Source of the DNA: Sphagnum compactum
Lineage: Eukaryota
NCBI GenBank assembly: GCA_965153455.1
Contig: OZ234494.1
Location: 11,904,001-11,968,000 of the forward strand
Length of the DNA stretch: 64,000 bases
Reading direction: 5' to 3'
Below the pieces are notes generated by a model. That model saw only the letters and a list, made by a program, of their open reading frames with translations. It ran no database searches and was not told where the DNA came from. Of the stretch, positions 19,790 to 45,700 are shown in pieces (position 1 is the stretch's first letter; each line of letters begins with the position of its first letter). The position numbers and the translations under genes were made by a program.

Positions 19790-20001
19790 ACCAGCCAGCC
19801 ACTTTGGTTCAGCCAGCCAATTTATTACACTCTTTTTGGGAGGTGCACAACTTTGTAGCACCCTTTACCAGCCACGGCAAGCTGCACAAATTTGGTGCAG
19901 AAAAAAAAAACCAATGTCCTGAGCTAAACCGGCACATTTTGACTTTTCCACAATAAATTTTACTGTCTGGAGTCACATACTGAGCACCGTTGGAGATGCT
20001 C
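19790..20001. mobile_element. Partial (right-half) copy of the Tourist/PIF-Harbinger-like MITE
   Basis: Ends GTCACATACTGAGCACCGTTGGAGATGCTC followed by TAA, and aligns by eye to 26480-26660. Confidence 0.7.
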
Positions 20002-22430
20002 TAATATGGTCATTAAGAGGCCATACTGAAAAAGGTCAAGGTACGACACCACTAGTGAAAGCTCAGTGGTATATATATATATATATAGCCCATTATGAGA
20101 CCTTAAAACCTCCAAAAATGTCTCAAGTTCAAACCCAGTGGTATGCCAGGTGAATTCCACCCTTGTCAATGAGCGCAACCCTCTTCTGGCCAAATGCACC
20201 CTTTTCATGTTTTCCATGCATTTTCTCTTTCTTTATAAAAAGGTTGGATTGATTGCCATACTTATGGCTAAGAATTCGACATAGCTCTTGTTAAAATATT
20301 TTATTATTGTTGAAATAGCTCTTGAGGTTCAACAATTCCAATTTTCATATATTAGGAGTATAAAAAAGTGCACCTTATGGTTTGCATTTGTAATGGTATC
20401 CCAATGGTTGGGATCAATGTTGGATGGGTATCACAAAAATGGGTGAGAATTAGTCATAGTTTGGGATATCTGGAACAATTATAGAATTAATCCTTAGGTA
20501 ATGTCTGGTTCTCAAACTAATAGAGGTTTAAAATTTCAATAATAGGCAGAGATTAGTAATTGGAATTGAACTCAAGAGCTCCATGAGATCAAAGAAATCC
20601 TTTACCACTAAACCCTTAAGGTTTAATCCTTATACAATAAAACCCTTTTATAATCACGCCCTTGGTGACCATTTTTTTTCGTGACACTAATAAATTATGA
20701 TTTAAACATGTATAGTCATATTTGATATAAACTTTTACAAGATTGTGACTATAAGAAAAAAAAAACTTACAAAAAAACCCTTTTATGCTAGAATATAAAT
20801 GTGCCAATTGTTTAAATTTTTTATTTGGGTTATTTTAAGTTCTACTATGCATTACTAGACTTGAAAAAGGTTTTGATTTCTGCCTTTTATGTGATGATTT
20901 ACATTGAGTTTGAGCTCCTTAACTATTACCTTATATATCTTGTCAATTATATTTTCTTAATTAAGATTTTCTGCTTTCTTAACAAGTTCGCATATATTTT
21001 GCTTATTTGCATTAGAAAGTTGTTTTTTCTTTTTTCTTCAATTGGATTCATTGTTGTTAGTTTGCACAACTTGAATACAAAGCAACACGAACATTGCCAA
21101 AGGGAACTACAATTTACAAAACTCTTATATTTATATGAGGTTTACCCATTATAGTCAGATTTACAAAAAAAAAATTTGCAAATATTTTGTGCTACTAACA
21201 AGTGCGATAGTACCTCTAAAAAATGGTGTTTTTTACTGAAATGGATGGTTATCAAAAAATGTGTAACACAAACAAGAATGTGACTAAAATGGGCATGATT
21301 ATAAAGGGGGTTTATTATATGAAGCATACTTTTTTTTCAAAAACATTTGAATGTTTGAAAAAAAAATTTTAACATCAAGAATGTTTCATCATTATTTTTA
21401 TTATTGTACACCAAGCTCAAGAAATAAATTTTCAAATTTTCCTCACAATCATATTTTTAAGCTTTGAATATTACACCAACAAGTGGAATGGAGGCCTAAA
21501 AGTTTATGTACTTGTTCATTCTATTCTTTACATCTATTTGTTTGGGGATTCTTATGGGTTACAATATTACTACATGAGTAGTTTATCAATTTGCTTGGAA
21601 ATGCATTTATTTAGGCTAGTAAGTTAGGTTAAATGAAAATAAAACTTACAACCAAAATGTTATATTATTAGGTCATATCCTTTATATATGTGGGTGACTT
21701 GGTGGCAAGTTGCGCATGGGAAAAGGAGGGATTAATGTGGTCGTTAAAGGGCCTTCCATCCACCCATGGACAATACCCCAAAGCTTAGTCCTTGTTTTGA
21801 AAATTAAATTGGAATTATTTTAATTCTTGTTCCACACATAAACATAATGAAAAATCTGATTTCAAATCTGATTTCAGATCAAATCGATTTTTTAAAATTA
21901 AAATTTAGGTTTTGATTATGAAAATTAATCATTATTCCAATCTAGTTCTTACTAATGAGAAGGAATTAGTGATTAACAAGCAATTAAATTTTTTAATTAT
22001 TTGTTAATTTGATTCCACTGAATCAGAAACAAACTTAAGATACTTAATCATTGAATTTTTTTGTTCCACATACAATGGAATTGGATTTTTGAATTCAATC
22101 CCCCTTTTTTTAGAAATAAGAATTCATGTTTTGGTTTGATCTAAAAATTAATTTCAATTCAAATCGATTTTTTACTAATTACAACTAGAACTGTATATTG
22201 GTTCTTTCATTTGGTGAATATTCAACCACCATTAGAGATTATTAGTGTTGGGAGGCATTGTTTTTTCAAAACTTAAAACTATTTAGTAAGTGTAAGGTAT
22301 ATGACTACCTTTTATGGACAATTCCAAAAAATCAAAAAATCAGTTGTGATATTTGATTAAGAATTTTCATCAAACTAGTTTTAACCTTTCACTAAGGGTT
22401 TTCAAATTTCAAAGAAGTAGGTTGAAAACA

Positions 22431-24100: not shown

Positions 24101-25660
24101 CACTACAAGAAATCACGACTTTTTTGACTAGGAATTTCGGTCAAAAAAGCCCCCCATATGGTTTATTTGGCCCCATGTCCAACTTGACCAAAATGCCATT
24201 TTGGACAAATCAATTTGGATTCAACCATTTTGACTAAGTCTTTTTGGTTGGTTTTTTTTACTAAACGACCGTGATAATAATATAATTTGGACAACGACCA
24301 AAAATATATATTATTTAAATTATTTTATTTAAAATTAATATGAAAATATTAATTAATTAATTACCCTGCCTACTTAATTAATAAACCTAATAATTAATGT
24401 CAAAAAATAATTTATTATTTAGCTACCAACTTATGTCCTAGGCTAAACCACCTAGCTTAACCACCTAGGCTAAATCAAGCCACTTAGGGTAGGTCAAACC
24501 CCCTAAGCTAGGTCAAGTAACCTAGGTTAAGTGGTTTAATAGCTTTTGCAACCTAGGCTACTTAATTCAATCACCTAAGTAACCAAGGTAACCTAGGTTG
24601 CAAGTGTGGGGACTTGAATTCCTCACCTCCACATTGAGAAGTCAAGTGCTTAACCATTGCATCACCACCCCATAAGGTGATTTTCTTGAAGAACATATTT
24701 GTAATGAACATGATTTTGAACCAACATATTGTAATCAACCTCCATGAATTTTTTTTCAACATGCATATTGTGTTAAATGAACTTGAATGTTTTTACACTA
24801 CTTACATAAATAGGTAGGTCATAGGTAAAATAACCTAAGTAAGTAGGAAGTGCCTATTAATAAATGCATGTACTTAGGTAACATGTAGGTTATAGTCTAT
24901 TAGGCCTTATAGGTACCTACTAAATCTATGTTTATACCTACCTAGTAGCTAGGCCTAGGTGGTTTAGGCTACTAACCTAATTAGTAGGATAGTCTATTAA
25001 TCATGTGCAAACAAATACAATCTTTGGAGCAAATTGTTTTTACTCATTATCGCCACATAAAATAATAAACGAAAAAAATGACAATGACACAATATTTGCT
25101 AGTTTGTGGCAGTTATCATTATTGTTTATTAAAAACTAACAGTTGAAATTATTACTTTGCACAATTTCTAAGGTTAATGATTTAATTAGCCCATCATTTA
25201 TGATACTAGTTTTTTCCCTAACACAACATTAACTATTGCCACCACTATGACAAGTAATTCATTTTTTGCATATGCATAATCTTTTCCCATTTAAACATTA
25301 TATACATCAACTTCCTTCAGGTCCTCATCATCTACACATTCACCACCAATGGTTCCAAGCCATCCCAATACATTATAGTTATAGTAGTTCCCCCTAAACT
25401 TCTTTGTCAACATAATTGCAAGAATTCAATTTGTTCACATTTACAATTGTTGTTTTGTATGTGGAATTACATGTTCCAATGTAGTTTCCACCACCACACC
25501 AAACAATTACTTTCATGATTATGACATTTACAACTATGTTTTAAATTTAGTCATAAAATCATGTAAACTAAGGTGTTTTACGTGGTTATTTATGATCACG
25601 ACTAGGATTGAGGTCACTTTTTTGAGTCATAATTTAGGGGTTAAACCCCATTTTTGTGTG
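24101..25660. mobile_element. Non-autonomous CACTA-like element B abutting element A
   Basis: Starts with a canonical CACTACAAGAAA and has a degenerate right end TTTTTGTGTG. ATCACGACT subterminal motifs occur near both ends. Confidence 0.55.
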
Positions 25661-26305
25661 TTAACAATTATGGTTCAACTTTTGAAAATTGTTTAATATC
25701 GAACATCGGCAAGAGGTGTAGTAGTCATCAGCAACCATATGAAACACAAGTTGAAAGGTTATTCCAACCCCAAAGACTTATCTTCAAAAAGATTCAAACC
25801 AAGCATTCATCCTAAATCAACTATTGGGGTGAGGTTGGTTTAGGGTTCTGAAACCCTAACTTCCACTTGTTGCACACATTCTCATATTGTAATTACCTAG
25901 CATGATTTAATTTTGTGTTGGGGGAGAGCACAATATTTTTTATAATATTGCCCTAGAAATGTAGGACATTTCATAAAATCCAAATGCTTGGTTGATGGAG
26001 CAATTTGCTTTTTAAGATGCCCTACCTTGTTTTTTCTCTCTTTTTTATGATACTTGACAGGTATCATGAGCAAAAGGTTACTATGTGAGAGGATAACGAC
26101 CTTAGATGAAGGCATTCCAATGGAGGTGCCTCCCTGTGCGGGACCCATCCTTTGGGAATGCCCCCATCCTCAGGCATTATCCTACACCAAATCATTACTT
26201 GGTGTTATTATTATTAATTGAGCCACAACTTAATTCTTCTACTTTTTACTTCCCTTATTGTATTATTCTAGTGCAATAAAATTTGGCAACTTTTCATCAA
26301 CTAAA

Positions 26306-26660
26306 GAGCATCTCCAGGGGTGCTCAGTATGTGACCCTGCAAAAATCTTTGTAACGTCCAAGTTCAGTTGTTTACTTTTTGGCAACCCCACACGTAAAAT
26401 TGAAACTGGGACAGCAAATAGGTGGGTGGGGGACTACTAATAGCAAACCACCTGGATGAATCATTATGATGGACCGGCCAATCAGAGACACTTATCAGAA
26501 GTCAGCTCGATAAACTCTTTTCTGCACTTCACCAGCCACCATAAACTGTGAAATTATGCACAGCCAAAACCATTTTCCCGATCGAAACCGGCATGTTTTG
26601 ACTATTCTTCATCGAATTTTACTGTGCAAGATCACATACTGAGCACCACTGGAGATGGTC
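26306..26660. mobile_element. Full-length Tourist/PIF-Harbinger-like MITE (~355 bp)
   Basis: TIRs GAGCATCTCCAGGGGTGCTCAGTATGTGA ... TCACATACTGAGCACCACTGGAGATGGTC, with TAA on the right flank. Related copies lie at ~19790-20001 and 59175-59307. Confidence 0.85.
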
Positions 26661-26984
26661 TAAAAACAACACAAAAAGGAGTTTGACCACCTTTTGCAAA
26701 GGTGATAACCCATCCATCCCTAGGCTCTCTCTGTTGGTGGCCCATACCGACTTTAGCTTCTACCGATTTTCCAGGGTTCTTTCGAATGGCACGGCTATTC
26801 GCACATGCCGCTAGTGGTTAGTTCCTACATATATTCAACGACATTGGTAGTGCTATCAGTGAAGAATATGCCATAAGGTCGAAGTCTATCTACCTAGTGA
26901 AAAATAACTTGGTGTGTGTATCTTTTCTTGGAAGCAGACAAATGGCAACATAAACTAATATAAGATTTTTTGCAAGAGGAAATG

Positions 26985-27070
26985 GTGTCGACATGTTGTG
27001 ATATTACAAGGCATCAACCCTCAGAACACGACAGACATGAAGAGAATCACTCTTACAAGGATGTCGACAT
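26985..27070. promoter_or_regulatory. Pair of zinc-deficiency response elements (ZDRE, RTGTCGACAY)
   Basis: GTGTCGACAT at 26985-26994 and ATGTCGACAT at 27061-27070, upstream of the minus-strand ZIP gene. Confidence 0.55.
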
Positions 27071-28422
27071 TCTCCTTTAGTTAAGAACTCTGATGTGGGG
27101 TTTCCAGTTTACACCTGACCTTATTAAGCCCTACACTGGAAAAGGACTTAAGAATCGATCCTTGTCAATTGACAATTTATTTGGCTCAAATGAGAGGAGA
27201 TATCTCGTGCCATGTTCTTCAGAAATCTCCAGGCCTTCACTTGGAGTTAGTACCTGTGATATGACCACTTTTGGTCTTCGTGTACTTTCAATTTACTTTG
27301 TATAACAACAATCATGGCTATTAACCTAAGGAACACGTGATTCGGGTGGTCCCAGCTTGCATCTTCCTTTGTCATTATCCCATTATAATAGAACCATGCC
27401 CAAACCACAAAGGTCCTAAGGAGTAAGTACCATGTACTCGGAAGCCTTCTCCAATCAAAATTCCAGAATTGAGTATGACAATCCAGATTCACAAGGAGTT
27501 GTTATCCCATACTCATAAAAGTATGGAGCTCAAAACTAATTTAATTTGAATAGATTAGGCTATTATATAAAATTACATTGAGGTATACATATGGGAGAGA
27601 TTGGGTCATTAAGAGTGACATATAAGAACACGGTTTTGTGTCTGTGTATGTACATAAAAAAATTAGCGGCCCTCTGAAATTAGGTAGGTGTGACAAAAAG
27701 CAAACCCAAAACCAAGTTGGGCTGATAGATTCATGTGGAAGTGGGTTGCAGATAAGAGCACCTTTCAAAATTGCTAAGGCATTCCTTTTGGGGTGAACAC
27801 TGATATTAAGGATGTAGAGTAATTTCTCTTGTTGAGAGGCTTAGGAAAGAACTCAAGTACTCATGATCATAAGGACTAGGGCTGACCTTTGGGACCTTTG
27901 GGCAAGGAGTTTGTTGGATGGGAAACAACAAGAAATAGATTTGGTTTCAACGACAATGAAGAATGCACTTGGCAAAGAATGATAGATAATAGAGTTTTCC
28001 ATTAAATCACCATGTCTTTCACCCTGTCTTTGTCACCCCCAAACCTCTCTTTCAGTGGCGTCCGCAAAGTAAGAAAACTTTATTAAGTCTGGGTATAAAC
28101 TCAGCATTTAATGCACAGGGTTCGAGAGTAATTGTAGTAGCTGTACTAGTTGGTAAACCCATTTTGCTTGCAAAATGATCAGGAGAAAAGATTGAAAGGA
28201 CCTTGAGAACTGTTTAGTTAATAGTTTTAAGTTGGGACAATTTTCATTCAATGGGACAGTAAGAATTTAGGAAGCATTCTATTTTCAACAGCCACACGTC
28301 ATGAACATAGCTTGCGTTGCAATCATTTTTGCATCCAATGCAGGGAATTTCAACCCATGATTTGGATGTGGGAATTTCGACCCATCGAGACAGAAAAGTA
28401 GGCAATAGATAGAGAAGAAAGA

Positions 28423-31400
28423 TCATTGCAACAATTCTGTATAAACAACATTGGTCGTCGTCCTGCCATTCGGGCAAAAAACAAAGACGTCATTCACACG
28501 CGTAGCTCGTGACAGAGCTACATACAATTGGCCATGGGTGAAGACAGGTTCAGGCAAGAAAATGCCAACGATTTTCATGGTCTGACCTTGCGCCTTGTTA
28601 ATTGTCATAGCGAATGCCAATTGCAAGGGGAATTGGCGCCTTTGTAGGGTGAATGACCACTTCAAACGATTTGTTGTTGTGGTGATGCGCGGTATGTTGA
28701 CAATATTCCCCACATGCGCGCCACCAATGATCTGTGCAACGATCAATCTTCGTGCCAAGCGCGAAATGATTAGACGGGTCCCATTACAAAGTCCTGAGGT
28801 CGCATCGAGATTTCTTAGTAAGATAACAGGGACACCAACTTTGAGGGCCAGGCGATGTGGTGGCATACCTGCCAAAGTAATGGTGTTGAGAAATTCTGTG
28901 CCAATCGCCATAGCCTGGTCATCCCCCGTTTCCACCAAGTCTGCCGACAAAAATATGTGCTCTTGCCCAGGCACAGCCTCGACAATCTGAGTGTTGAGAG
29001 AGTTCACGACTGTATTTTTTGTTGTCAAAATAGCTCGACCGTCTATGTATCCTTGGTTTGCGTAATTGATTGCCAAGGCCGGGAAAACAGCGTGGATGAG
29101 GGTCTCTAAAGATGGCGCTTGATGGATTTCTGGGTTTAAGGCAATCTTGACTCCAATTGAGGGCTCCACGTCGGCTTCCGGTGGAAAATGATCAATGATG
29201 GAAGATTCTTGGCCATTGCCGACTCTCAGAAGGTACTCAGCATACGGCTTGGAGAGGGGATTTGCGCGCAATCTCATGTTTTCCGTGAGAGTCAAGATGC
29301 GCACTTGACGCCACAAAACCGAACGCAAAAGGGCCGCAGAAACGATTGTTGCCCGAGAGCCTCTGGACACCACTGGCGGACATTGTCGAAAATCACCCCC
29401 AAAAACAACCACTTTACTGCCAAAGGTTGAATCTGGGCACCGCATGATGTCGTGCAAAGTCCGGTCTACCGCCTCGGCACAATGTCGATGTTGTGCTGGA
29501 GCTTCATCCCAAACGATCAACTTTGCTTCCAGGAGTAGCTCAACAGAATCGCTTTGCACAGGTATCGAACACATTGAATCCCTACCAAGGGTGATTGGGA
29601 TCTTGAAAACCGAATGTGCGGTTCGTCCACCTTCCAATAGGAGAGCTGTTATGCCAGAAGAGGCAACCCCAATGGCGACATGTCCGTCTCGTCGAACCAA
29701 TGCCAATAACACTTTATATACAAAGGTTTTGCCTGACCCACCTGGACCGTCTAGGAAAAATACTGCACCTTCGCCTTGGGCTATTGCGTTGAACACTGTA
29801 GTGACAGCTATTTCCTAACAAATGTTGAGCCGCGGGAGATTTTGGTTGATGTAGCCATGGAGTACGTCTCTATCGTAGTCAAGTTCTGCAGCCAATTCAG
29901 GATTAACACGCAGCATTTTTACAGGCGGCAAAGCGAGCGGCATTTCCGGAAAGTCATGCAAGACTTTGTTCGTCAACGCTAATTTGAACTCAAGGAGTAG
30001 TAGGGTATCGTTGTAGGCATCGTCAGCAGTGCCTCCATTCGTGATGCGTCGATGCCACATATCGTGCGACATATCGTCTCGATATCTTTCCCATAACACT
30101 TTCGGATTCAAAGGAGAACAGAATAGTAAGAAAGTCACAAAGAGATTCCTTAGCCTCTTTGCGTCTTGATCGATACATGCTTCTCGCATGCACGTGTCCC
30201 ATTCTGTGTCATCCTGTAGTAATCCCAATCTTTGCAAGCAGCTTGAAACGTCGGATGCTCTATGTCGTCAACAGTCCGGAGATGTTCGAAAAAGGTCGCG
30301 CCCGGTACGACAGTAAGTAGGAGGCGGAGGAAGAAGCGTTCACCAGCAGCGGGATGTACAAAATACATTCGCCCAACAGCTTTTTCTCCTCGCTGTCGAG
30401 CTGACCAAACTTTTTCTCGACTTTTCCAAACATGATCAACAGGGAAGTCCGCATACACCACGTTCCGCCCATCCGCATTTTGAGCGTTATACGCAAAGTA
30501 GGCGGTCAAGGTGGTTTTTTGGTGGGCAGCACACTCCGCCACAGCGGCCAAATCTTCATTTTCATTAAAAATGACGTTGTGCTGTCCTGGCAAATGAACA
30601 ACTAATCGAGTGACTGGCGGCCATTCCATATGTTTTTTGAATGAAAGTAAGGAATCGACCCCTTCAGCAGCGCTCAAATATTTGGCGTCAATGTATTGCT
30701 GGATTTCGTTTATTGGACCGGCAATCACCGCTGCAACACGATCAGGATCTTTGTAAACGTATTTAAAAAGGTATTTGACACTCCGAATATCGGCGGACAC
30801 CTCGACGTTAATATGTGCATTAAACATCTTGGTAAGGTAGGGGTTGTGGGGCACCACCCATCGGTTGTCGTACGCAAAGCCATCTGGAGTCTTTTGAAAC
30901 GTTCGACCATCGTTTCGCCGACGGTAGACAGGGTAACTGTCTTCGCCTTGTGTTGTCTCCTCGGAGAAAGCTCGCGGATATCGTTTCTTGCATAAACCGT
31001 TGACCATGCAAGGTGCGTTGGGGTATTCTTGGCCACACGGTCTGTGCAACAAACATTTTGTGACCGTTTCAAAAAGAGGTGTGTTCTCTGGAAGAGGAAG
31101 CTATTCCGACACTAAGTGATCTATGTCTTCGGTTGTGGAAACTTTCTGCTCTGGAGGAAATATAAGGAGCAGATGGATTTGAGGTAGGCCTCGTTTTTGG
31201 TATTCCCTTGTCCAGATGTTCCCAATAACTTTGGCGAACCATCCAATTTTTTCCACTCCTTTAAGAAGGGCTTTCACCTTCATCTGAAATACGTGGGTGA
31301 CCAAATATGGACGGTCAGAAGGTGTTTGGTTGGGCTCGAGCTCCGCGATTATTTCTTGCCAATTCGGGTTGCAAGTGAATGTGAGGAAGACATCCGGAAT

Positions 31401-32900
31401 TCCTTTGCTTCGCACAATAGCCATCGCATCTTGATACGCTTACATCATGAAACATGGAGAACCGTGAAATGAAGCTGGGAGAACAATTCGCTAACCCACT
31501 TGCGCAAGATGTAATTGGAAATCATGTTCGACCATATCTGCTAACCCTTGGTAGAGTTTCGCACGAAGTTGAGCTTGGTTTAGCACCAAAAAGTTAAGAG
31601 TGTTCTGCTCTGTCTTAGCAGCAACGTCGACGATATACTGTTGAAAATGGCGACCACCGAGATGTAGAGCGGAGAGTTCGCCACTAAAGTGCACTCTTTG
31701 TGCGTAATAAGCCGCCATTGAGACCCTTGTGCGTGCTCCGTCCTGATTGTTCTGTAGCCGCAGATTTTGAGACCACCCGTCCTCCCCAACAAAGGAAAAG
31801 CAACGGGTATTGTAAAGGATCGTAAGAAGGTGCTAGCTCGTTCATCCGTTGTAAACCACCTCCATATCGCCGTTGTACAATGACATCGCGATTTCCAACC
31901 TCTCCCGGCTCGCCAAGAATTATCATTGCAACCTCGTTTGCCGTAGGGGCGTTGTAACGGTGGACATCTCCATTTCCCAGGGTACGGCCAGCTGTAATGC
32001 AAATGTGGACCTCCTCTGTAGGGTTTGCGGCGAGACGGTTAGCTGCACGAACGAAGACATTTACATAAGGATTTACGTGCCCGAGGATCGTGCGAAATGT
32101 CATCAAATGCGCCGAGCTTAGATTGGGGTTCTGCATCTGCCGATTCGGACCTTCATTTACCGCATCATGCACATAGGCCTGAAGAAAGCATGGCAATTGC
32201 CCTTCTGCAAGTTCCATACCACCAATCAAGTGGTAGAATCCTCCTTGCACTTTGTAGGTATGCACTCCTAGTCCAAGCTCGAAGCCCACACTCTGGACCC
32301 TTGTGGACGTAAATGCAATTGCAGCATTGTATAAACGAAGATGTTTACGCAATTCGGCATTTTGTCAATCTTGTAACATGGCCATGTATTCTGGCGGGGT
32401 ACGAATAGGAGGCAAAAGAATTTTCCCTGCAGCACAACATTTACTATAGTGTGGTCTTCGAAGAGAGCCCCCCGTGCGCTCTTCGATCCAGAAGCGAGAG
32501 CCACAATGGTTGCATTGTTCATTCAAACGTCTGAACACTTGTCGGTCTACTTGCGGGTCGGCCAAGGGGTACCGCAAATCTCGTAGGGCCATGTGGTGTC
32601 CAACCTGAAGTTGATCCTTTGCGCACGCGACGCGATGTTGTTCAGTGCATCGCGCAACATCTATCATTAGTTGGGTTTGACGGCCCTGTTCTGTTTCAAG
32701 AGCATGCGCTCTCGTGTGTTGTTCCGTGTTTTCCAATAATCGATGAGCAATATTAGCCATACACTGTGCTTCCTCATGTTGGGCCCCATTAGACGCAGCC
32801 CTTTCGAGAGCTACTGTAGCACGACGAAGTCTTTGACGTTCTCGAGTAGCTACTCGCCTTTCTTCATCATTTGCATATTTGCATGACGCTCCAGGGCCTC
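28423..32900 (-). pseudogene. Helitron RepHel (HUH Rep plus PIF1-family helicase), disrupted by stops and frameshifts
   Basis: Zinc finger CNHCGSRFWIEE..CC; Rep motifs PDVFLTFTCNPNW, EYQKRGLPQIHLL and KYLFKYVYK; YDNRWVVPHNPYL; ERFFLRLLL; helicase GPGGSGKT, LIVWDEAP, FGGDFRQCPPV, LCNGTRL, FAMTINKAQGQT, HGQLYVALSRA. Split over about 8 ORF pieces. Confidence 0.96.
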
Positions 32901-33114
32901 GTCTACGATTCTTTCAGTCGGAAGCAAAATGGAATCAGGCTCTAAAAACACAATAACATAACTTCATATTTAACTACCATTACGACAGGCGCAAGTCTAA
33001 CCTTGGGGTCAACATATCCACGAGCAATGTATCTGTATTCTCTGTATCATATGAGGCACTAACCCACCAGAAACACCACACATGGAAGAGCCAAAAGGAG
33101 TGAGGAAAAGGTAC

Positions 33115-33242
33115 CTCTTCCATGACAGTATTTGCAACGCTTGTGCTCCTGTTGATTCACATTATTCAACTCTACAACCATGAATGACGTGATGACTCCC
33201 ATAGCTCCTCCAAAAATTGATGCCACAAGTGGGTCAACTTCA
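33115..33242 (-). pseudogene. ORANGE (OR, DnaJ-like zinc-finger chaperone) single-exon fragment, copy 1
   Basis: EVDPLVASIFGGAMGVITSFMVVELNNVNQQEHKRCKYCHGRG matches the recalled OR segment QVDPIVASFSGGAVGVISALMVVEVNNVKQQEHKRCKYCLGTG. The 128 bp exon keeps its AG acceptor and GT donor. Confidence 0.88.
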
Positions 33243-33611
33243 CTGCAACCCCCCACCTAACAATCTCAAGTTTAGGAGCACATACACCCAACCAAGATGC
33301 TCAACCACACCCACGTTCAAGAGGACATGATCCTCAAGTGACCTAGATCTAGCACATCGAGCACATGCCAAGTACCCTACATGGTTTCCAATTGCCAAAT
33401 AGAATCATGAATTGGTGTTAAGTTTCCAACAAACAGAATGAATCTTTTGATTATCAAATAGAATATGTATCTATATTCTCTATGTCATTTGAGTATCAGG
33501 CAGCCCTTTCCTAGTTAAACAAAACCAATTTAGTTTTAAAGAATCATATGAAGCACTAACCCACCAGAAACACCACACATGGAAGAGCCAAAAGGAATGA
33601 AGAAGAAGTAC

Positions 33612-33739
33612 TTGTGCCATGACGGTATTTGTAGCGCTTGTGCTCTTGTTGTTTCACATTGTTCAACTCTACAACCATGAGTGACGTGATGACTCCCACA
33701 GCTCCTCTAGAAAATGATGCCACAATTGGGTCAACTTCA
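33612..33739 (-). pseudogene. ORANGE exon fragment, copy 2 (tandem duplicate including flanking intron)
   Basis: EVDPIVASFSRGAVGVITSLMVVELNNVKQQEHKRYKYRHGT; a 128 bp exon. Segment 33543-33780 duplicates 33045-33283. Confidence 0.88.
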
Positions 33740-33918
33740 CTGCAACCCCCCACCTAGCAATCTCAAGTTTAGGAGCGCATACAACCTCCTAAGTCAAGAC
33801 TTCACTGCTAGATAACCATCAAAACGACTCCTTGCTGGTCCTACTTTGTTGTTTTCTTCATGGAAATGAAAGGTTTGGAGGATAAACCTCAAAATGGTCC
33901 AAAATCAAAAAACTATTC

Positions 33919-34071
33919 TTATTGGGCCAAGTGGGCAAATGTGTCATTCATTGGAAGTCGCACAGTACCCCTTGCATACGGCCCACAATGGCACTCCTCT
34001 AGTGCTGCAAGAAGAAGGCCATCAACTTCAGATCCAAACAAAAGCCAGTCACCTGGCCTGTACTTAACATC
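33919..34071 (-). pseudogene. Exon fragment of a SpoU/TrmL-type tRNA 2'-O-methyltransferase
   Basis: After acceptor TGCAG it reads DVKYRPGDWLLFGSEVDGLLLAALEECHCGPYARGTVRLPMNDTF, with SPOUT motifs D.L.FG.E..GL and VRLPM. It is truncated before the SLNLS motif. Confidence 0.8.
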
Positions 34072-34699
34072 CTGCACCCACTCAACCCTTCATCCTAACT
34101 TCAAAAAATATCCCAGACAACACAAACCTTGCATCACATATTTCATCATGCTGGATTTCCGTCATTGGAACACTGTCCATGGTTAGAAGACTTATTCACC
34201 TTTCAAGTGTTCAACACACTCATTGATTAGTCTAGCCTTTAACCCCATTCTTTGAAGGAGAATCAAAAGTCAAAGTCTTTTAGAGTGCATATCTAGCTTC
34301 AGAAATCTATAACTTTCTGAAGATTCTATCTCCTTTCACCAGAAAAGATTCAGTGCTAAAATCATGTCATCTATCATTTGCTGGTACAATGCTTGCAGAA
34401 TAGGTGGAAGGGAAACAAACCGTGTGAACATGTTTGCCATGTTTTGTGAATGCAAGCAGTCTCTTCTCCCCCTCCTACAATTGCACCACAATCTATGATT
34501 GTCAAACAAACATAACTACATTCAATTAACACTACATGATCAATCATCAATGATAAAATTCAGGCAACTGATTACACCATCAGAATGTCCAATGAGAGGC
34601 TGCAAACCTGCTGCTGAAAATATGCAAAGAAGTCAGTCCAGGAGCTATGCACTTTCACCGCCACATATCTACCCACCTTGATCTTGAGCATGAAAACTC

Positions 34700-34769
34700 C
34701 ATCTCATTCATGCTTACCGTCTCATCACTACCAATATTCAGTGGCTCCTGGAAGTCTGATTTTGTCAAC
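34700..34769 (-). pseudogene. Exon fragment of GDP-mannose 3,5-epimerase (GME)
   Basis: After acceptor TTTGTAG it reads LTKSDFQEPLNIGSDETVSMNEM, matching the recalled GME segment LTKSDFREPVNIGSDEMVSMNEM. Homology then stops abruptly. Confidence 0.85.
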
Positions 34770-35436
34770 CTACAAATGGAACTAAGGATCTCATAAACCT
34801 AGAGAGACATTATCTTTTCCCATAAGAATCACTAACTAATTGAAGCAAAAAATTTGCAAAAATCTCCTTTCAACCCTGTGTCTACATACATATTTTCCTG
34901 CCATGACCACCTGAAAAACAATAGAGGAGAGAATTGTGTCCGGAGTCACATTTGTCCAAGCAACTTGAGGTTTTGATAAGGTTATAAAAAGCATGGGTGC
35001 GGTCGAATGGACCCCGCACCATCACCGCAGTTGATGTTGATTCAAACTAATAGTAGACTTTGGGGAGGGAGGGGGGCTAGTATAGCGAAATAAGTGCATA
35101 CCTTTTTGTCCCACATCCTAAGTAACTGGTATTTCATTTTGGCCCTGATGATGACCGGCTTGTGAGGGGTAAAGGTCAGGCCAAAAATAGTGATAAACTT
35201 ATTTGGGAGAGGAGAAAGTTCATGCAGCTAATGGGAAGGCCCATTTTTTCCTTTTAAGTTTGGGGGGCGGGGGATTTAGAGGAGGATATTTTTTAGGTTT
35301 CCCTGGTTCCATTATGTTGACCATCCCCCACCATGCGCTCATTTTGACTGGGGCCTTCAAGGGAAAGGGGGGGTGTGGGGGGGGGGGGGTCGAGCTAATC
35401 ATGAATTATCGCATCAAGCCATCGACACCCATTTCT

Positions 35437-35680
35437 TTATAGTAGTAGACAGGTAGGAGCAGTGAAAATATATGCCACAGCAGTGGAGGCGTTCAAGAAA
35501 AAGGAAAGAAACAGGATGAAACCCAGTTTACCACCCCAAAAAAATGATGTTTTTATGAGTTGCAAACCCCCCCCCCGCCGAGAATTCTTTGTCTTTGGTA
35601 GGTTTTTAAAAAATTCACTCAGTTTTGGACCAAACTCAGGGTTCTGGTGCTGGGTTTTCCTGACTTTACCGATTTCTCTC
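35437..35680 (+). repeat. Left arm of a long inverted repeat pair (partner 42541-42779)
   Basis: TTATAGTAG..GTAGGAGCAGTGAAAATATA..CAGCAGTGGAGGCG and CCAAACTCAGGGTTCTGGTGCTGGGTTTTCCT match the reverse complement of 42541-42779. Confidence 0.8.
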
Positions 35681-35849
35681 AAAGTTGCAACAGTTGAAGA
35701 GATTCACTGACTTAGATGAGCGGTTAGGAGTGTATGAAGATGCCTCCGAAGATCGAGCATAAGTGACACACCAAAATTCACACCCAACTACAAGGAGCAC
35801 ATACAAAACCTAGACTTTCCAAAGGAGAGGTCTCATTGTTTAGTGCAAA

Positions 35850-36500
35850 GAGATATCTATGGTCCTACAACGTGGCCCAACATGATCCACGGCATGATCC
35901 CTAAGGTATGGGTGGCAGATGCAAGGAAAAGCCTCAGCAGACCACCCTTTCTGTTTTGCTATGGTACCCTAGCTAACCTTGAATTTGATCTAGGATATTG
36001 GGAATGGGAAGCTCAAGGGACACTCATAGAATACACACACACACACACACAACAACAACCAAAAACAAAAAAAATGTAAATAATTGATTAGAGATCGACA
36101 AATTTTGACCAAGACGATACTTGAGAAATGGGAACCACTTCTTCCCATAGATTTCAAATGTAGATGGGACAATGTATGGTTGAAGATGAGCGAAAAAAGA
36201 CATCAGATTCATTTGGTCTATGTGGCACAAAGCAATTGTAGTTAATATGTGGAGAGCAAGAGTGAACTTAGAGATTGAGGCTAAATGCTACTCATGCAAT
36301 CTCAATACTCTAAAACCCATCTTGCATATATTTTGGGAATGTGAAAGGGTTTGCTAAGCAAGGACTTGGGCGCTTACCTTTTTGCACCCAATTAAAGTTC
36401 CCTTTCAACATGGAAAGGCCTCCAAATGAAGCCCTAACTTTGTTTTAATAAGAGGTTACCCAAGAAAATCAAAGCATTCAGCTCAATATGGACCCTACTT
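35850..36500 (+). mobile_element. L1-like LINE ORF2 C-terminal remnant (zf-RVT zinc knuckle)
   Basis: 36211-36372 translates as IWSMWHKAIVVNMWRARVNLEIEAKCYSCNLNTLKPILHIFWECERVC*ARTWA, a CxxC..H.F.C pattern typical of L1 ORF2. Confidence 0.7.
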
Positions 36501-36829
36501 CATGGGGTTAGGAATTGCATTAATGGATGATTTTTTAGTGTCTCTTTGGCCTATGTAGCATTAATGCCATGGTTGGCTTAGGTCCCTTGCAACAACTGCT
36601 CGGATCCACAACATCTTTTAAACAAATATTTTATTAATCCACGACTCAATGCCCATTCAATGATACATTACCTAGAATATAGAGTTGTAAGGATGACAAA
36701 AATTATGGAAAAATCTAGGCCAACACAATTGAAGTTGAAATTTTAAAAACCTTTTTTTTTCAGTAATGCACTTGGATGTAATAAGTCCAAGCATTTCCAA
36801 ACTTGTATTGCTTTTATTGTCTTGCTTGT

Positions 36830-37265
36830 CATTGTGGTGGTCTTGTTGTTGTTTTAATTAGCAACTATTCACCATCACCCTCTTGATTTTATCATCTTAT
36901 GGTCCTAGTTGTCGTGGTCATCACGATCTTTTTAATTGCTAAAGTTAAAAACTACTTATCATCATCTTTTCAATTTTGATGATCTTGTGGTCATGCTTGT
37001 TGTCATGGTTTGTTCATTGTTGTAACCAACAATTATCCACATTGCCCTCACGATTTTAATGATCTTGTGGTCTTGGTCATTGTCATGGTCTTTTCATTGT
37101 TGTAGCCAACAACTACCCACCATCACCCTTTTGATCTTAATGATCTTGTGGTCTTGCTTGTTGTTGTGGTCTTCTTGTTGTTATAGGCAACAGTTGATGT
37201 TATGCCATTTTGATCTTGATGATATTGTGGTCATATTTGTTATTGTAGTCTTTTGGTTGTTACAC
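36830..37265. repeat. Degenerate tandem repeat, about 5 copies of ~80 bp
   Basis: TTGATGATCTTGTGGTC..TTGTTGTCATGGT recurs at ~36880, 36975, 37053, 37130 and 37210. Confidence 0.75.
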
Positions 37266-40029
37266 ATAATAACAGGATGCTAGTCCACAAACCTGCAAGC
37301 ATGAGCATGAACTGGCGAACATGAACGCATGAGCAAGATTGAATCTTTAAAAAAATATTTTTGTCTATGTTGATAAAATATTAAAAGAATTTTTTTTGAC
37401 ACGTAGGACAAAATATTTGCTGACGTGGAAAAACATTTTGCCACATGTCCATGGATGAATGATCTTTATGGATGAAAATATGGATGAATTTTATTCTGAA
37501 CGTTGGCAACAAACACTATCCAAAAAAAAACATCTTACTATAAAAACCTTTGTTGATGTTCATTTCTAGTATTGTTTAATGGCAATGCTTAACATATGTT
37601 CATATTGGTCAAATATCATAATACACAACTAGATTTGGCATTGAAGGTGATGAATAATTTATTTATTAGAATGCATTTAAAAAATATAGTATATAGTTTT
37701 CTGAAAAGATTGACTTACTATATTGTGTATCTTTCTTGCAATTCTCTTTGGAATAACCACTTCCACCTTGAAAAGTAAGTCAATGTGGTTTCCTTTGTTA
37801 TGTTCCTTAGTCACCATTTCCAACAAACCCACGACCCTCTCCCCTTGCACCATGGATGTGCAACATAAAAACATAATCCTTGATATCAAAGTGCTAGAAG
37901 AAAATATTTATGTTGTTTTTTAAAAGCAACATCACTAGGCATGCCACTTGCTTTTGTTCAAAGCTTATGAGTGGCATATATCAAAAGACATTACAAGCAT
38001 TCCACTTTTAGGTTTCCACAACTTTTGATGATGGGAGCTCAAATTTTCATATTTTCAACAAATTTCAAGCAACCCCATAATTTGGAATTAACTTTCAAAA
38101 CTTTTTAAAACATTAAATTTCAGCACAAAACTATATAATTGAATTCATATTTCACTTTTCAAGCATTTTCCAATAAATTAGATTTCATTACATTATGAGC
38201 AAGGTTAAAAAAAAATTCTATTGAATTTTGTGATAGAGCCAAATTGGCATTCATCCATAAGAAGATTTAACCAAATATGGACCATATATGGAAAAAGAAA
38301 AAATTAAAGATCATTGTGTATTTTGGAAATCTATTGGAACCAGTTGAAAATTGGTGATTAATTTTTTTTTAAATTTTGCATTTGCTCCCCCCCCCCCAGC
38401 CCAATTTGGCAAATTAGTTTCATTTTTTCACAAAAATCTTTTATATGTGTCAAAATTTAAAAAATGAAAAACTCTTCCAAAAAACTAAAACATAGCTACT
38501 GTTGGACCTAATAGGCACGTTCAATAATGATGAATGTCATCACTTTGATCCAACTATATAATATCAAACACACATTGTGAAATATATATATTTTTGATTT
38601 TATGAATCATGCTAAAGGGTTGTGTAACCCATCAAAATGAAAAGAATTTGGGGCATCACACATTTTTAATGTAGGTTCGTGTAAGCTTGCCTTGTGCTCC
38701 CTTTTTAGGAAATTTTATTTGTGTTTTATAATAAAAAAAACCACATCCTCATTGAAAGTGTCTAAATTGAAGATTTTTTACCTTTAGAAATTGGAAGGTA
38801 AATGCCTATAAGGAGGATGCCACATAAGAATGGGGATATCATTTGGCAAAAAAAAATCAATATAAAAAATGTTGTTGTATGAAATGTGTATATGTGTGTG
38901 TGAAAATCATGGTATTTCTTCATTTTATTTTATGGTGGGCAATGTACAATCTATCAGGTATTGAATCACTAACATTCATATTAACACATATTGTTTAATG
39001 GCTTATACACCCATTTATAGATTTGATAAATGCATTAATATGTGAGAAATTTTCCATCATCCTAAATTCTATTCATTGTATGAAAAGAAATATCTGGCTA
39101 TTTAATTATTTAGGGAAAACATTCAAATTGAAATATTTCACACGATCTTTTCATACATAAATTTAAGTTAAAATTATACACCATATTATGAAAATTTTAT
39201 TAAGTGGAATTTTCATTTTTGAGTTGTAAATAGCTTTTCAGAAGTTTTTATAAATGAATTGAACTTCTAATGTTGTACATTTACTATTATCATATGGCTA
39301 CATTTATGCAAAAAGATGTAATTAATCACACTACATTGGACATTTTTACTTTTGTTTTTTCACATTCAAAATTAGAATTGTTGGCAAATTAATGAAAAAT
39401 AAAATAGCCACTCCAAAAAACATGTTCATTTTCAAGATATCTTGTCAAAATTTTCCCCAATTTTCCCCATGATACCCAATGTGTATCATGGGAAAAAAAG
39501 ACATTTTCTGCCAATGCTTTACATAGGATAACACCCTTCATGTGGAGCATTTCATATCATTGTTAAAATCATCATTCAAATTTTCAATTGAACATTACAT
39601 CTACTAAATTATAGTGATAAATAATTAAGAGTTTCAAAATAAAGGCCTATGATCATTCTAGAAAAGAAAATAGTGTTATGTAAATAATTACATCCAATGT
39701 TTTGCATTATAGCTAAATCCATAGAGGAGTTTTTTTGATTTGCCCCTACATGGAGATCAAAACTATATATATAAAATTTTATGATTATATATATATATTT
39801 GAAATGATTAATCATAAAATTGAATCTTTCAAAAACTGAAAAGTTGAATATAATCTTTCGAATTTTGAAAGATTTAATAAAACAGAGATAAATCTCAAGT
39901 AAGTTAAGAAAAAGTCAAACAAGATAGATTTAGGCTCAAGAACAAGGTGAAAATACAAAGGAAAAAAAGTGCCAATGCTTTGCATAATTAAGTTATCCCT
40001 TAGCCAAAATTGTTCGGTCGCAATTTCGG

Positions 40030-42540: not shown

Positions 42541-42779
42541 TAAAGTATCCATAAAATAAGGAAAACACAGCACCAGAACCATGAGTTTGGTGATAAACAA
42601 AGGTGAGATTACCCCCCCCAAAAAAAAAAAAAAAGGTGCAAAAATTGCATTAACATTCAAGAGGGGTGAAACTCAAAAAAAAAAATCATCCAATTTAGCT
42701 GTCTTTCGGTTTTTCCTGAGCGCCTCCACTGCTGCTGCTACCTATATTTTCACTGGTCCTACTTGTGCAGCTACTATAA
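42541..42779 (-). repeat. Right arm of the inverted repeat pair (partner 35437-35680)
   Basis: GGAAAACACAGCACCAGAACCATGAGTTTGG and CGCCTCCACTGCTG..TATATTTTCACTGGTCCTAC..CTACTATAA. Confidence 0.8.
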
Positions 42780-45700
42780 TTAGCCTCGAACCTTGTGCAT
42801 TAAATGCCGAGCTTCAATTTCATACCATATGTGATAAAATTTCCTTACTTTGCGGATACCACTGAAAAAAAGGGTTTGGGGGTGAAAGGAGGCCCAAAGA
42901 CAGGGTGAAAGACAGGGTGACTTCTAACCAGTGTTGAATCTTGATACGCTAGCTGCATTCATTCGCTTCAATTCTTCTGTCGATCTCGATCGATTTCCAA
43001 GGATTTGCAGTAGCCATTGTGATCGTCCCTACCAACTAGTTCTTCCCGATATATGCGATCTGAAGAATTGTGTAGTCTTCCGTCTTCGACATTTCCAGCT
43101 TTTGAGTGAAGTTGAAGAAAAGAGCCGCTGTTGTTTTCGAGAGCTGGATCGCCGAAGTTGTAGCTGCGAAGGTGGGCGGAGTGGGGACCACTACTTGTTC
43201 GCAGGACGGATGTCCGTCGGTACAAAGAAACACAAACTTTGCTTTGTTGTTGTGCTGAAGCTTCTCTTTGACGCAACTTTCAGTATACATACAAAGGACT
43301 GTGTTTTTCTCTATAAACGGAGCTGCAGCTTCATTCCCAAGCTGCAATTGTTCTTGCCCACCCTCACTTTAATTTTCTCTCGTCATGTCCTCATCAAAAA
43401 TAGCCACATAAATCCTCCTCCTCTTCTGTCTGCACTGATTCTTCCTTCCCGGAGGAATCACTACGCTTTAACACAAAGATTGCTGTACAAGAACGTAATT
43501 TGCTGTTATCAAATCTGGGCTTTCTGTACAACAGCAGCTTGTTTTTGTTTAGAACTTGAGTTTAAAGCTGATCAACTTGAGATCTTGTCGTCGTTGAATT
43601 CAATGGATTCAAGCTGCGCCATGACTGATGCAGCCCGACAAAAGGTCATGTGCAGCGCTCATGCCTGCAACTTCCCAATGCTGGTCATGGGTCTGAAATC
43701 CCTGAACCAGAACAGGATCAGGGCAAGATCAAGGCTGCAATGCAAGAGACAACTGCGTGCTATCAAATCAAAGCAAGCAACTAGTGCAAGGAGAGCAACA
43801 AGGCGGAACAAAGTCCACATGATCACAAATACTACATACAAAAGTTGCTGCAAAAAATTTCCATTTACTCCTTTCAATAGCACTTCGTTTCTGATGAAAC
43901 AACACTGGAAGAAGAATCAGGTAAATCTTCAAATGGAAATGATCTCCCTTGACCTACAACAACAGATACATCAATATGGATCCATGATCAGAGTCTTGAG
44001 TCTCCATTCTTTTGCTGCACATCATTTATGGCACTAAAAGAGCTCGACATCAAAAGTTCTAAGAGGTCTCGAGAGCTTGAGCTAACAATTGTAATAATAT
44101 CAAGGCCTCCTCCCCCAAAACCACAAGGCAATGAAATCGGTGACAAAATTCTTTGCAAAACTTTTACATTCTCCTCTCCTCATTTGGGATTTGCTTCTCC
44201 CACAATAACAACAAATTATCAAGAAATGTCTCCTTGATCTAGAGAGAGAGCTTGTTGGTGCTACTTTACATCCAATTCTAGCAAGGTATTGTTTACTTTG
44301 CTTTGCTTTGCTTCCACCCTTCAAGTACAATTGACCTAACAAAAATTCTTTAGCAAAATTGTTGTGCATCTTAGTCTTTCTTTGCTTGTTGTGTCCACAA
44401 CACAAATGGATCAAGAATTTCTCATTAACAAAGCTTGTACAAAGCCCACCCAAATCTATCACATGTATATCCGATCTACCGGAAATTGTAGAAGATTAGA
44501 TCATATTCGATTTTTGATCAGATATCAAAAGAGAAATCATACTCGTATTCTTTCTTAATTCAACCATATGATCATCATCATTTTGTCCATTTTTTTAGGA
44601 GAATATAGAAGGTTATGTTGAAGGTTTGGGTTTTGGTTTTGCTCTTTTGAAGTCTCTTGAAGAGATGTAAAAAACTTAAACCCTAAATAATCCCAAAAGG
44701 ATGTAAGAATTGGGTGCTTTTGAGTTTGATACTTTGCAAGTGCAAATATGTCAACCATGTCTGTCAATCTCTTGTGATGAACTTATCATCTTGTATTTCT
44801 TTGAAATTTTCTAAATTAAAAAACTTAGTTTTCAAGGGATTTTCAACTTCAACTTGTGAATTGTGTTGTTTGAAATTTTTTTAAACAAAATTTCAAATGA
44901 TAATGTGAAAGTGTGGTAAAGTATACAAAGAAAATAAATTGCAACAAGTTATTATTGCTTGCAACATTGTTTACAATGCTTACAAGATCAAATGGTTGTT
45001 GACAATTAAGAAAATGCATGATCTTTGTAAGAAAAGGTGTGTCATGATGTAATGTTATCCTATTGTTGTCCCATGGTAAAAATTTCTATTGTCATACACA
45101 TGATTCTCTTCAACAAGGATGCATGTTGTTCAAAAATTTGAGAACATATGTTATGTTCATTGAGATTAACCATTATAACCACATCCCTAGAAATATTTGT
45201 TGGTAGTTGAAGTTGACTTCAAAACAAGAAATGAAAGGAAGGGGCAAGGATGCTTGCTTGCTTATTTGTTTGTGTGTTATTTTTTAAACTCATACTCTAT
45301 TGCTAATCATGTTAATTGTAGACTTTGATTAATTGGATGCTGTTTTTGTAACTCATATTTTAAAATGTTGCTTCAATCAATTTAGTGATTTTAAAATGGT
45401 TCATGAAATGGTTCAATGGCCAAGTAAATCTATGTGAATTTTCATGCTTTGATATGTGGATGATTCTATTGAATGCAAAATATGTGTTTTTTTTTTGTTC
45501 ATTATGGTGAGAGTTAAGAGGTTCATTGTTTGAAAAATAGTCATCAATAATTTTTCAAAGATAATTACATTTGAAAAAAGTTAACACTAATTAAAAAATT
45601 CATAAAATTGAATGAAAATGAACAATGAACTTCATTGAGAAACTATTATAAATGAAGCAAGTTAACACATGATACTTTTTATAACTTTTATGAATAGTTG

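Follow-up and report, generated by a model that had tools for sequence, protein, structure and literature searches.

The minus strand of the 64,000-nucleotide stretch of Sphagnum compactum DNA that we analysed (hereafter, the window) harbours a canonical Helitron of the HLE1 type, with TC and CTAG ends, a 3' hairpin and a Helitron_like_N domain. This element is, very probably, a Sphagnum-type copy in which DNA captured from GME, SpoU/TrmL and ORANGE (OR) genes was transposed along with the element, in a family that has now decayed. In this scenario, exons and introns of the three genes would have been captured as DNA in an ancestral element, after which one ORANGE exon unit would have been duplicated, the final exon of TrmL would have lost its end where it now meets ORANGE intron sequence, and GME would have been cut within its exon; the element with its load would then have transposed, and its RepHel gene would have ended up broken both in the window and in every sampled relative. 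Carrying this reading are the borders of the element, the identities of the donors, the introns retained, the junctions that copies share and the decay of the family, each of which we document, while the cargo, as judged from its sequence, gives no sign of coding for anything.

The Helitron copy (28146..35449; all parts of the element are on the minus strand) is 7304 bp long, beginning with TC at 35449-35448 and ending with CTAG at 28149-28146. In many DNA contigs, which come from two organisms, 28144 is joined to 35449 and the intervening 7304 bases are missing, with two ambiguous letters. The element interrupts a high-copy host repeat, which we call R and to which no strand is assigned, with an upstream half (35450..35669) that matches 42702-42765 and a downstream half (28004..28145) that matches 42768-42923. 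A paralog of R within the window, at 42552-42923, is uninterrupted across the insertion site and thus represents an empty site, with no target duplication. The preliminary description of this DNA had suggested looking for an empty site between A and T in relatives; at the present insertion, T is the host base on the 3' side, but the 5' host base is G, versus A at five other distinct 5' ends. We count this G against our reading.

Related copies define the same termini. Position 28146 is the end point of many of them, where a T and then unrelated flanks come after CTAG, while their 5' ends show TC after unrelated flanks, at five distinct sites with an A before and one directly abutting the CTAG of another element. 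Copy L024 aligns with the window from 35449 to 28404 with 93.5% identity, its upstream flank being unrelated, and 11 related contigs display a fused 3'-end/5'-end junction. The 5' terminal region (35162..35449) begins with TC, and its first 100-150 bp are common to other copies whose upstream flanks are unrelated. The 5' TC end, which it had been proposed to fix by aligning other copies, therefore lies at 35449, beyond all the fragments, and the cargo is internal. The 3' hairpin (28160..28177), read from the sequence, has a 7-bp stem and a 4-nt loop, lies 10 nt upstream of CTAG and is conserved in related copies at their 3' end. Its fold of -4.5 kcal/mol is unexceptional when compared to shuffles (z -1.1; 27 of 200 shuffles as good), which we also count against our reading.

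The summed contig word depth, a measure that does not equal copy number, is ~10,000 over the upstream half of R versus ~30 for single-copy flanks, and ~11,000 in the bin 28038-28471, where the downstream half of R lies. We considered whether the high-depth flanks (28097-28144 and 35449-35669) might be the Helitron termini, with the 7.3-kb joint corresponding to deletion derivatives, and rejected this because TC and CTAG are the exact limits of related copies, beyond which the flanks are unrelated, and because the depth falls at 35449.

The RepHel gene (28423..32913) is recognizable as a pseudogene from its Pfam matches and ORF layout, which comprise a Rep part (Helitron_like_N, 3.4e-30 and 1.6e-8) and a PIF1 helicase part (PIF1, 6.1e-65; Pif1_2B, 2.6e-22). 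The uninterrupted RepHel frame that marks an autonomous Helitron is absent from the window copy, which has in-frame stops at 32365, 31101 and 29815 and frame shifts near 31792, 31450 and 30229, with 1-nt indels at 31792 and 30229 separating it from other copies. This bears out the minus-strand RepHel and decayed element proposed previously. The decay is general. In our sample of 80 related moss contigs, which correspond to 52 distinct copies (clusters), there is no intact RepHel, and the longest ORF among the 80 loci is 584 aa. C>T and G>A together account for 365 of 692 private changes in other copies and for 14 of 32 in the window copy, an excess that suggests silencing by methylation.

No part of the cargo lies outside the interval from the 5' terminus to RepHel, and all of its fragments are co-oriented with RepHel. 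Each of the three donors named from the letters alone, OR, TrmL and GME, was matched, and since the matching proteins (OR, SpoU and GME) are from Sphagnum, the guess of a bryophyte host was right as well. The short GME and ORANGE exons were not recognized by Pfam, their identities coming from a large protein collection and the PDB. Intact homologues exist in Sphagnum as full-length OR (345 aa) and SpoU proteins (264 and 299 aa), while the window contains no further copies of ORANGE, TrmL or GME. How far each captured piece extends is judged from read-through gene models rather than from donor genomic DNA. Capture was of DNA rather than of spliced RNA, as the retained introns show: TrmL exons i-iii are present with their intervals, and OR exon A comes with its intron and the exon after it.

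Nearest to the 5' end is a partial GME exon (34699..34770; 34700-34769 in the preliminary description, whose assignment stands), with an AG acceptor in front of it and a break inside the exon at 34699, from which point the DNA is TrmL-derived. It matches a GDP-mannose 3',5'-epimerase in the PDB (E 2.1e-8) and is 91-97% identical to GME-type proteins of Sphagnum, the gene models of which (partial, 84-190 aa) run on beyond the break in the captured exon. Moreover, donor GME mRNA reads break exactly at 34699 and 34771, where 187 and 167 polyA reads, respectively, run off. The segment that accompanies the exon in all GME-bearing variants (34771..35161) is probably GME intron, as suggested by read-through gene models, with at least its last ~100 bp resembling the real intron (the P0019 model matches 34865-34803). 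L032, L049 and others hold 35161-34699 as a single block. Differences in the GME exon are in excess at third positions, with counts of 5, 6 and 16 by codon position in eight copies (p 0.016), and this too we count against our reading.

The SpoU/TrmL piece, previously placed at 33919-34071, was correctly identified, but it consists of three consecutive exons with introns rather than one. Exon i (34608..34667) encodes residues 161-180 of P0008 (tblastn, 95% over 20 residues) and is followed by GT, exon ii (34421..34474) encodes residues 181-198 (100% over 18 residues) and is flanked by AG and GT, and exon iii (33934..34071) encodes residues 199-244 (89%) and is truncated. The two intervals between them, of 133 bp and 349 bp, have GT...AG ends. 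While the exon iii piece gives weak matches in the PDB (E 0.012) and to Pfam SpoU (E 0.044), it is 91-93% identical to SpoU-domain proteins of Sphagnum jensenii (E 8e-21). In the donor, exon iii extends to residue 299, and copy L049 holds residues 199-299 unbroken. Codon-position counts on the TrmL exons, from sets of four to five copies, are too small to be informative.

The truncated TrmL exon meets, at ~33937, a piece of ORANGE intron (33794..33938) that lies upstream of exon A and is collinear with the P0001 read-through model and with copies that retain upstream OR exons (residues 181-231). Next come two ORANGE units, 33543..33793 and 33046..33296, which form a 251-nt direct repeat (repeat family D5), 90% identical with a spacing of 497. 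Unit 2 contains an exon A copy at 33613-33741 that is 93% identical to P0003 residues 232-274, while unit 1 contains another at 33116-33244 (OR residues 232-~274, by tblastn to P0003) with flanking intron. The following exon (33336..33380, residues 274-288) lies after exon A copy 2, its intron and an AG. Its tblastn match is weak alone (80% over 15 residues, E 0.051), but it is where the next exon is expected, and a moss RNA contig joins ORANGE exon A to 33378. What had been described as two ORANGE exons is thus ORANGE indeed, but two copies of one exon, with a missed next exon in between.

A leader (32914..33045) separates the cargo from the Rep ORF. From 33030 downstream, this leader is common to all subfamilies, the alignments of divergent copies beginning at 33030. 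The AG at 32943-32942, which had been thought to act as an acceptor leading into the Rep frame, is present but does not open into that frame, because it is followed by two in-frame TGA stops (32937-32935 and 32916-32914) that are kept in nearly all related copies.

How widely is this cargo distributed? ORANGE sequence is found in 35 of the 52 clusters and is absent from 10 in which upstream sequence is present, the remaining 7 being uninformative. The whole collage occurs in three copies, with identical junctions in different flanks, so other Helitron copies do carry the same cargo, as it had been proposed to check. L024 is collinear with the window over 7049 aligned bases and L046/47 is collinear too, both in different flanks, while GME, TrmL and OR are borne together by L046/47 and L049/54/59. 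Copies in different places share junctions because the loaded element transposed. The three full-collage copies, seven deletion derivatives and 10 divergent cargo-free clusters together argue that the cargo was captured and then moved with the element. In a tree of 51 rows (region 33030-31700), cargo-free rows fall outside a 43-row clade (SH-aLRT 98), and the window is part of a star-like 33-row clade (SH-aLRT 99), which an OR-only copy (L002/L004) shares with full-cargo copies; the basal forks of the tree are open. In the divergent cargo-free subfamilies, no ends came out of a strict search for the 5'-end motif, a laxer blast search found one (L070), and the 1.2-2.4 kb upstream regions of these subfamilies were compared among themselves.

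Serial capture, put forward in the preliminary description, is plausible, since forms with ORANGE only, ORANGE and GME, and ORANGE, GME and TrmL all exist, but the tree gives them no order and deletions could yield the same series. The order of acquisitions and the mechanism of capture are what we infer. It is conceivable, if unlikely, that the fragments were not gathered serially, either because a pre-existing collage was picked up in one event or because an ancestor held all of them and the variants are its deletion products. Secondary deletions are clear, with an 820-bp loss (34806-33988) common to seven clusters and the upstream OR exons gone from the window form, and in L049 the GME piece (34936-34699) occurs twice, flanking TrmL, so that TrmL would be lost if the two recombined, which could give the L032 form. 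However, the breaks differ in type from fragment to fragment (mid-exon for GME and TrmL, in an intron for OR), and in L032 and L065 the GME piece directly adjoins a longer OR piece, without a TrmL remnant. The arrangement of TrmL between duplicated GME pieces also resembles an insertion into GME-derived DNA, and the ten cargo-free clusters sit outside the cargo clade. As for the view that the cargo is another transposon, Pack-MULE or CACTA-like, nested in the Helitron or situated outside it, other plant transposons reportedly carry gene fragments too (PMC1947982), but this view is extremely improbable: the 5' TC at 35449 lies past every fragment, inverted repeats of at least 16 nt are absent from 32900-35460, and the variants differ piecewise rather than by the presence or absence of one block.

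The captured exons might be used, either spliced into chimeric transcripts, which may or may not include RepHel, or as small RNAs acting on ORANGE, GME or TrmL. We consider this very unlikely. Besides the orientation of the fragments and their preserved AG/GT borders, it can draw on a 318-nt moss metatranscriptome contig that spans 34676-34935 across the GME/TrmL junction, on RNA-library contigs over RepHel (depth 6-17) and on public annotations that place ORFs on such pieces (P0001, P0016 and P0018). However, a metatranscriptome library can contain DNA, the exons decay with no codon-position bias, ORANGE exon copies showing no third-position excess and a stop in 9 of 53, and the conserved stops come after the AG at 32942. 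In polyA RNA under the same organism label, the depth over 28472-32811 was 0, with no RepHel reads in the ~12% of the run that was sampled, and, because only this fraction was sampled, a lack of polyA support is not evidence of absence. Of the polyA reads that fall on the element, 938 of 988 fit only in part and 93% continue into unlike sequence, so the cargo reads are mainly donor mRNAs. The spliced chimeric transcripts envisaged at the outset hence find no support. To a bolder version, in which the captured exons, with their splice sites, form an obligatory 5' leader of the RepHel unit and have aided the success of the family, its ORANGE-bearing lineage being the one that expanded in a burst (35 of 45 informative clusters), we give still less credence; if it were true, the cargo might have supplied promoter or splicing signals, or small or chimeric RNAs might have acted in peat moss on ORANGE, GME or the gene for TrmL.

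That Helitrons capture genes, and that maize elements bearing RepHel do so step by step, has been described before, and the captured-DNA Helitron described here is a bryophyte case that establishes no new principle. In maize, according to Dong et al. 2011 (PMC3288121), the RepHel-bearing ZmhelA1 carries eight gene fragments and ZmhelB2 two, with stepwise capture and internal loss. The moss element is alike in its TC...hairpin...CTRR structure, in combining several unrelated host fragments with RepHel and in having variants that differ by piecewise gain and loss. It differs in that Rep and helicase motifs are intact in those maize elements, whereas no sampled moss copy has an intact RepHel, in its moss host, in a cargo placed wholly on the 5' side of RepHel and in that chimeric transcripts from it are at most putative. 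Closer in host is HelenSM92 from Sphagnum magellanicum, a family of the HLE2 (Helentron) type that captured a GIY-YIG domain, as described in the HELIANO paper (PMC11417382). It is likewise a Sphagnum Helitron-like element with which captured coding sequence transposed, but it has short terminal inverted repeats, TT sites and a captured domain that belongs to the element's protein set, in contrast to the present HLE1-type element, in which the remnants of three host genes are non-coding. Rolling-circle transposons of bats, Helitrons and Helraiser, also capture and amplify host gene fragments, reportedly with a 3' hairpin terminator the bypass of which leads to transduction (PMC4224331 and PMC4778049). 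Their hosts are animals, and capture in them is documented mainly beside the ends, whereas the moss cargo is internal.

What the present copy provides is a fully bounded example of capture in a bryophyte, with an empty-site paralog in the same window and related variants in which duplication, truncation and deletion of the cargo can be followed. It also has a practical side. Public gene sets from Sphagnum and moss metagenomes list parts of the collage as proteins, termed "hypothetical", "unnamed" or GDP-mannose epimerase (P0001, P0002, P0016 and P0018), so that gene counts for peat mosses can come out too high for ORANGE, GME and the SpoU type.

The minus-strand element at 28146-35449 (7304 bp) is a real, well-bounded and decayed Helitron that carried a cargo from three host genes along during transposition. 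To define its borders, 25000-38000 was compared with DNA contigs from two organisms, a metatranscriptome and a polyA RNA run. Summed word depth is about 30 in the single-copy flanks, 95-335 over 28472-35415 and about 10,000 in two short blocks, 28097-28144 and 35449-35669. Many contigs join 28144 straight to 35449, skipping 7304 bases with two ambiguous letters. The 5' terminus, TC at 35449 (minus strand), sits at this joint, and the 3' CTAG (28149-28146, minus strand) is followed by a host T and preceded, 10 nt away, by a hairpin with a 7-bp stem (28160-28177, minus strand). Since the hairpin fold (-4.5 kcal/mol) is no better than shuffles (z -1.1), it counts only jointly with its position and conservation. 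The high-depth sequence is a host repeat, interrupted here (28004-28145 plus 35450-35669; depth about 10,000) and occurring twice in the window. The second copy, 42552-42923, runs uninterrupted across the insertion site; aligned to it, the two insertion flanks are directly adjacent and show no target duplication. The insertion lies between host G and T instead of the usual A and T. The uninterrupted form of the repeat is crossed by six polyA reads.

Related copies were sought in JGI metagenome contigs, where a scan with residues 1-182 of the Rep frame gave 132 matching stretches and 106 confirmed loci; the best 80 were kept and form 52 clusters at 98.5% identity. Among these 80 loci, 5' ends show a common TC-led terminus after unrelated flanks. 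An A precedes it at five distinct sites (L002/L004, L022, L024, L045 and L046), in L015 another element's CTAG lies directly before it, and two 5' ends (L018 and L045) have GC in place of TC. At the other end, L012, L015, L017, L028, L029/L031, L035, L036, L038, L061/L062 and L075/L076 have the hairpin and CTAG, then T and unrelated flanks; in L072-L074 the base after CTAG is G. The ends of the related copies rule out reading the high-depth blocks as the Helitron's own ends, common to deletion derivatives. Because these copies have TC and CTAG ends with unrelated flanks, the element is 28146-35449 and all fragments lie inside it, so that the attribution of the cargo to this Helitron in the preliminary description holds. 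In eleven contigs (L006, L007, L010, L013, L016, L019, L020, L026, L027, L028 and L037), the 3' end has lost its last bases and CTAG and runs straight into the 5' end of a different Helitron, itself short of its first three bases. This fused form, equivalent to a head-to-tail junction with 11 nt removed, was apparently copied as a unit; the intact junction is seen in L015 (5687-5799, with CTAG immediately followed by TC).

The cargo was mapped by local tblastn with Sphagnum proteins, which are the best protein matches throughout the cargo frames, and on these alignments the collage is bigger than was previously described. With these matches, and with moss-metagenome labels on the RNA runs that contain parts of the window, the host is taken to be a peat moss or a near relative. 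No inverted repeats bounding it were found. A fragment for GDP-mannose epimerase (GME) had been proposed at 34700-34769, and is confirmed by a 47-residue frame (34655-34798, minus strand) that matches residues 252-283 of a solved GDP-mannose 3',5'-epimerase (E 2.1e-8), as well as moss proteins named GDP-D-mannose 3',5'-epimerase by their sources and a Sphagnum balticum product, at 91-97% identity. The exon, 34770-34699 (minus strand), has a pyrimidine tract and AG just before it and is broken mid-exon. Sphagnum GME proteins extend beyond the last residue it matches, and polyA reads leave the window sequence at 34699 (187 reads) and 34771 (167 reads), their run-off translating as adjacent GME residues.

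For the SpoU/TrmL methyltransferase, a 56-residue frame (33919-34089, minus strand) gives weak matches to TrmL structures (E 0.012) and to Pfam SpoU (E 0.044), and 91-93% identity (E about 1e-20) to SpoU-domain proteins of Sphagnum jensenii. The identity assigned to the fragment at 33919-34071 thus stands, but there are three exons rather than one. These are consecutive, with GT and AG read at their borders, and correspond on the minus strand to residues 161-180 (34667-34608, tblastn 95%), 181-198 (34474-34421, 100%) and 199-244 (34071-33934, 89%) of the Sphagnum protein. The last exon is truncated; in L049 it reaches residue 299 in one piece.

The third gene is represented by two 65-residue frames (33059-33256 and 33556-33753, minus strand) matching a 345-residue Sphagnum troendelagicum protein, unnamed in sources, which we take to be ORANGE from the sequence of that family. 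The two ORANGE exons described before are ORANGE-like indeed, but represent one exon in two copies: tblastn places residues 232-274 at both 33741-33613 (93%) and 33244-33116 (minus strand), each copy enclosed in one unit of a 251-nt direct repeat (90% identity between units, spacing 497). Residues 274-288 (33380-33336, minus strand; 80%, E 0.051), a match weak alone, are the next exon, at the expected position beyond an intron. The copies of the ORANGE exon have 140 differences at first, 90 at second and 124 at third codon positions, and a stop codon occurs in 9 of 53; they show no coding constraint. The GME exon (34700-34768) shows 5, 6 and 16 differences (p 0.016) in a small sample of eight copies, the window and seven related loci. 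This third-position excess, which the ORANGE exon does not share, could stem from gene conversion by the donor or its homeolog.

How the cargo was assembled can be approached through its variants among the best 80 of 106 loci. The ORANGE unit is present in 35 of the 52 clusters. In 10 others, which are 82-86% identical to the window and align with it from 33030, it is missing even though they extend 1.3-5.3 kb upstream; the other seven are uninformative. Other copies carry the same cargo: the window shares the combination of GME, TrmL exons and ORANGE with L046/47, L049/54/59 and L024, the last of these collinear with it across 7049 aligned bases (93.5%). In L049, the order is GME, TrmL with a complete last exon, a second GME piece and a long ORANGE piece; the window form is explained by loss of the sequence between the middle of the last TrmL exon and the ORANGE intron at about 33937. 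Seven clusters join 34807 straight to 33987. They have lost the GME exon and, of the three TrmL exons, two entire ones and half of the other, and are therefore deletion derivatives of the full form. Simpler forms carry a GME piece and, immediately after it, an extended ORANGE piece with two more exons (residues 181-231), with no TrmL (L032/33/36 and L065/66), or a long ORANGE piece with neither GME nor TrmL (L002/4, L041, L043 and L072-74).

Such a series could reflect serial gain of cargo, and it is also possible that the simpler forms arose by deletion or recombination loss. A quick IQ-TREE analysis of 33030-31700 (51 rows) places the cargo-free rows outside a 43-row clade (SH-aLRT 98) and the window within a star-like 33-row clade (SH-aLRT 99; terminal branches 0.02-0.07), but gives no order for the forms with ORANGE only, ORANGE plus GME, and all three genes. 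Since the tree does not settle these forks, serial gain is plausible only. Several family members have 0.5-3 kb stretches without a window match between the 5' end and the common parts (L022 881-3945, L018 594-1755, L045 2894-4061, L002 2656-3185, and upstream regions of L048, L061 and L070), which may be additional cargo.

The minus-strand RepHel gene (28423-32913) is borne out by Pfam, which recognises Helitron_like_N (3.4e-30 and 1.6e-8) as well as a PIF1 helicase (6.1e-65) and the 2B domain of that helicase. It is a pseudogene with in-frame stops at 32365, 31101 and 29815 (minus strand) and shifted frames; one-base differences separate the window from other copies at 31792 and 30229. No intact RepHel ORF was found among the best 80 of 106 confirmed loci, the longest having 584 residues. 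In an alignment of the window and 29 star-clade loci (33030-28200, 4830 columns), 14 of the 32 changes private to the window, and 365 of 692 in the other rows pooled, are C>T or G>A, a share that would fit deamination of methylated cytosine. The AG acceptor suggested near 32942 is present at 32943-32942, but the Rep frame downstream meets TGA at 32937-32935 and 32916-32914. Both stops are kept in nearly all copies among the best 80 of 106 loci, cargo-free ones included, so the suggested AG does not lead into an open Rep frame.

The spliced chimeric transcripts that had been envisaged find no support in the polyA run, which shares the organism label and of which about 12% was sampled. Its depth is 0 over 28472-32811 in RepHel and 6-41 in the cargo bins, with the first mate always on the plus strand. 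Because 938 of 988 reads fit only partially and 93% of the placed material continues into unlike sequence, the cargo reads come largely from spliced donor-gene mRNAs. Metatranscriptome contigs, from a library that may contain DNA, give a depth of 6-17 over RepHel and include a 318-nt contig (34676-34935) spanning the GME/TrmL junction.

In maize, Helitrons are described that have TC/CTRR ends and a 3' hairpin, insert at A|T, capture gene fragments step by step and undergo internal loss; among them are RepHel-bearing elements with eight and two gene fragments (PMC3288121). The Helitron-like family with a captured domain that is reported in Sphagnum magellanicum belongs to another clade (HLE2), with TT sites and terminal inverted repeats (PMC11417382). 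Titles and abstracts on Sphagnum, Physcomitrella and bryophyte Helitrons yielded no report of host gene fragments captured by a Helitron in a bryophyte. Public Sphagnum and moss-metagenome gene sets contain short "hypothetical" or "unnamed" proteins (P0001, P0002, P0016 and P0018), which are read-throughs of captured exons and introns, or of donor introns.

The surroundings are gene-rich, with AT-rich tracts of 23-30% G+C between genes. Pfam identifies a ZIP zinc transporter (16757-18722, minus strand), an Aa_trans amino-acid transporter (49185-50618, plus), a syntaxin/SNARE (58523-60004, plus) and the start of an ATP-dependent DNA ligase (63654-63998, plus). A short repeat at 26304-26660, with a summed contig word depth of about 22,800 against about 30 in its flanks, internal inverted motifs, sharp ends at 26304/26305 and a 98-nt relative at 19907-20004 (78% identical), is probably a MITE-like element. 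Just past the host repeat lies a tandem repeat (36973-37192) with an 80-81-nt unit in 2.7 copies and 80% matches.
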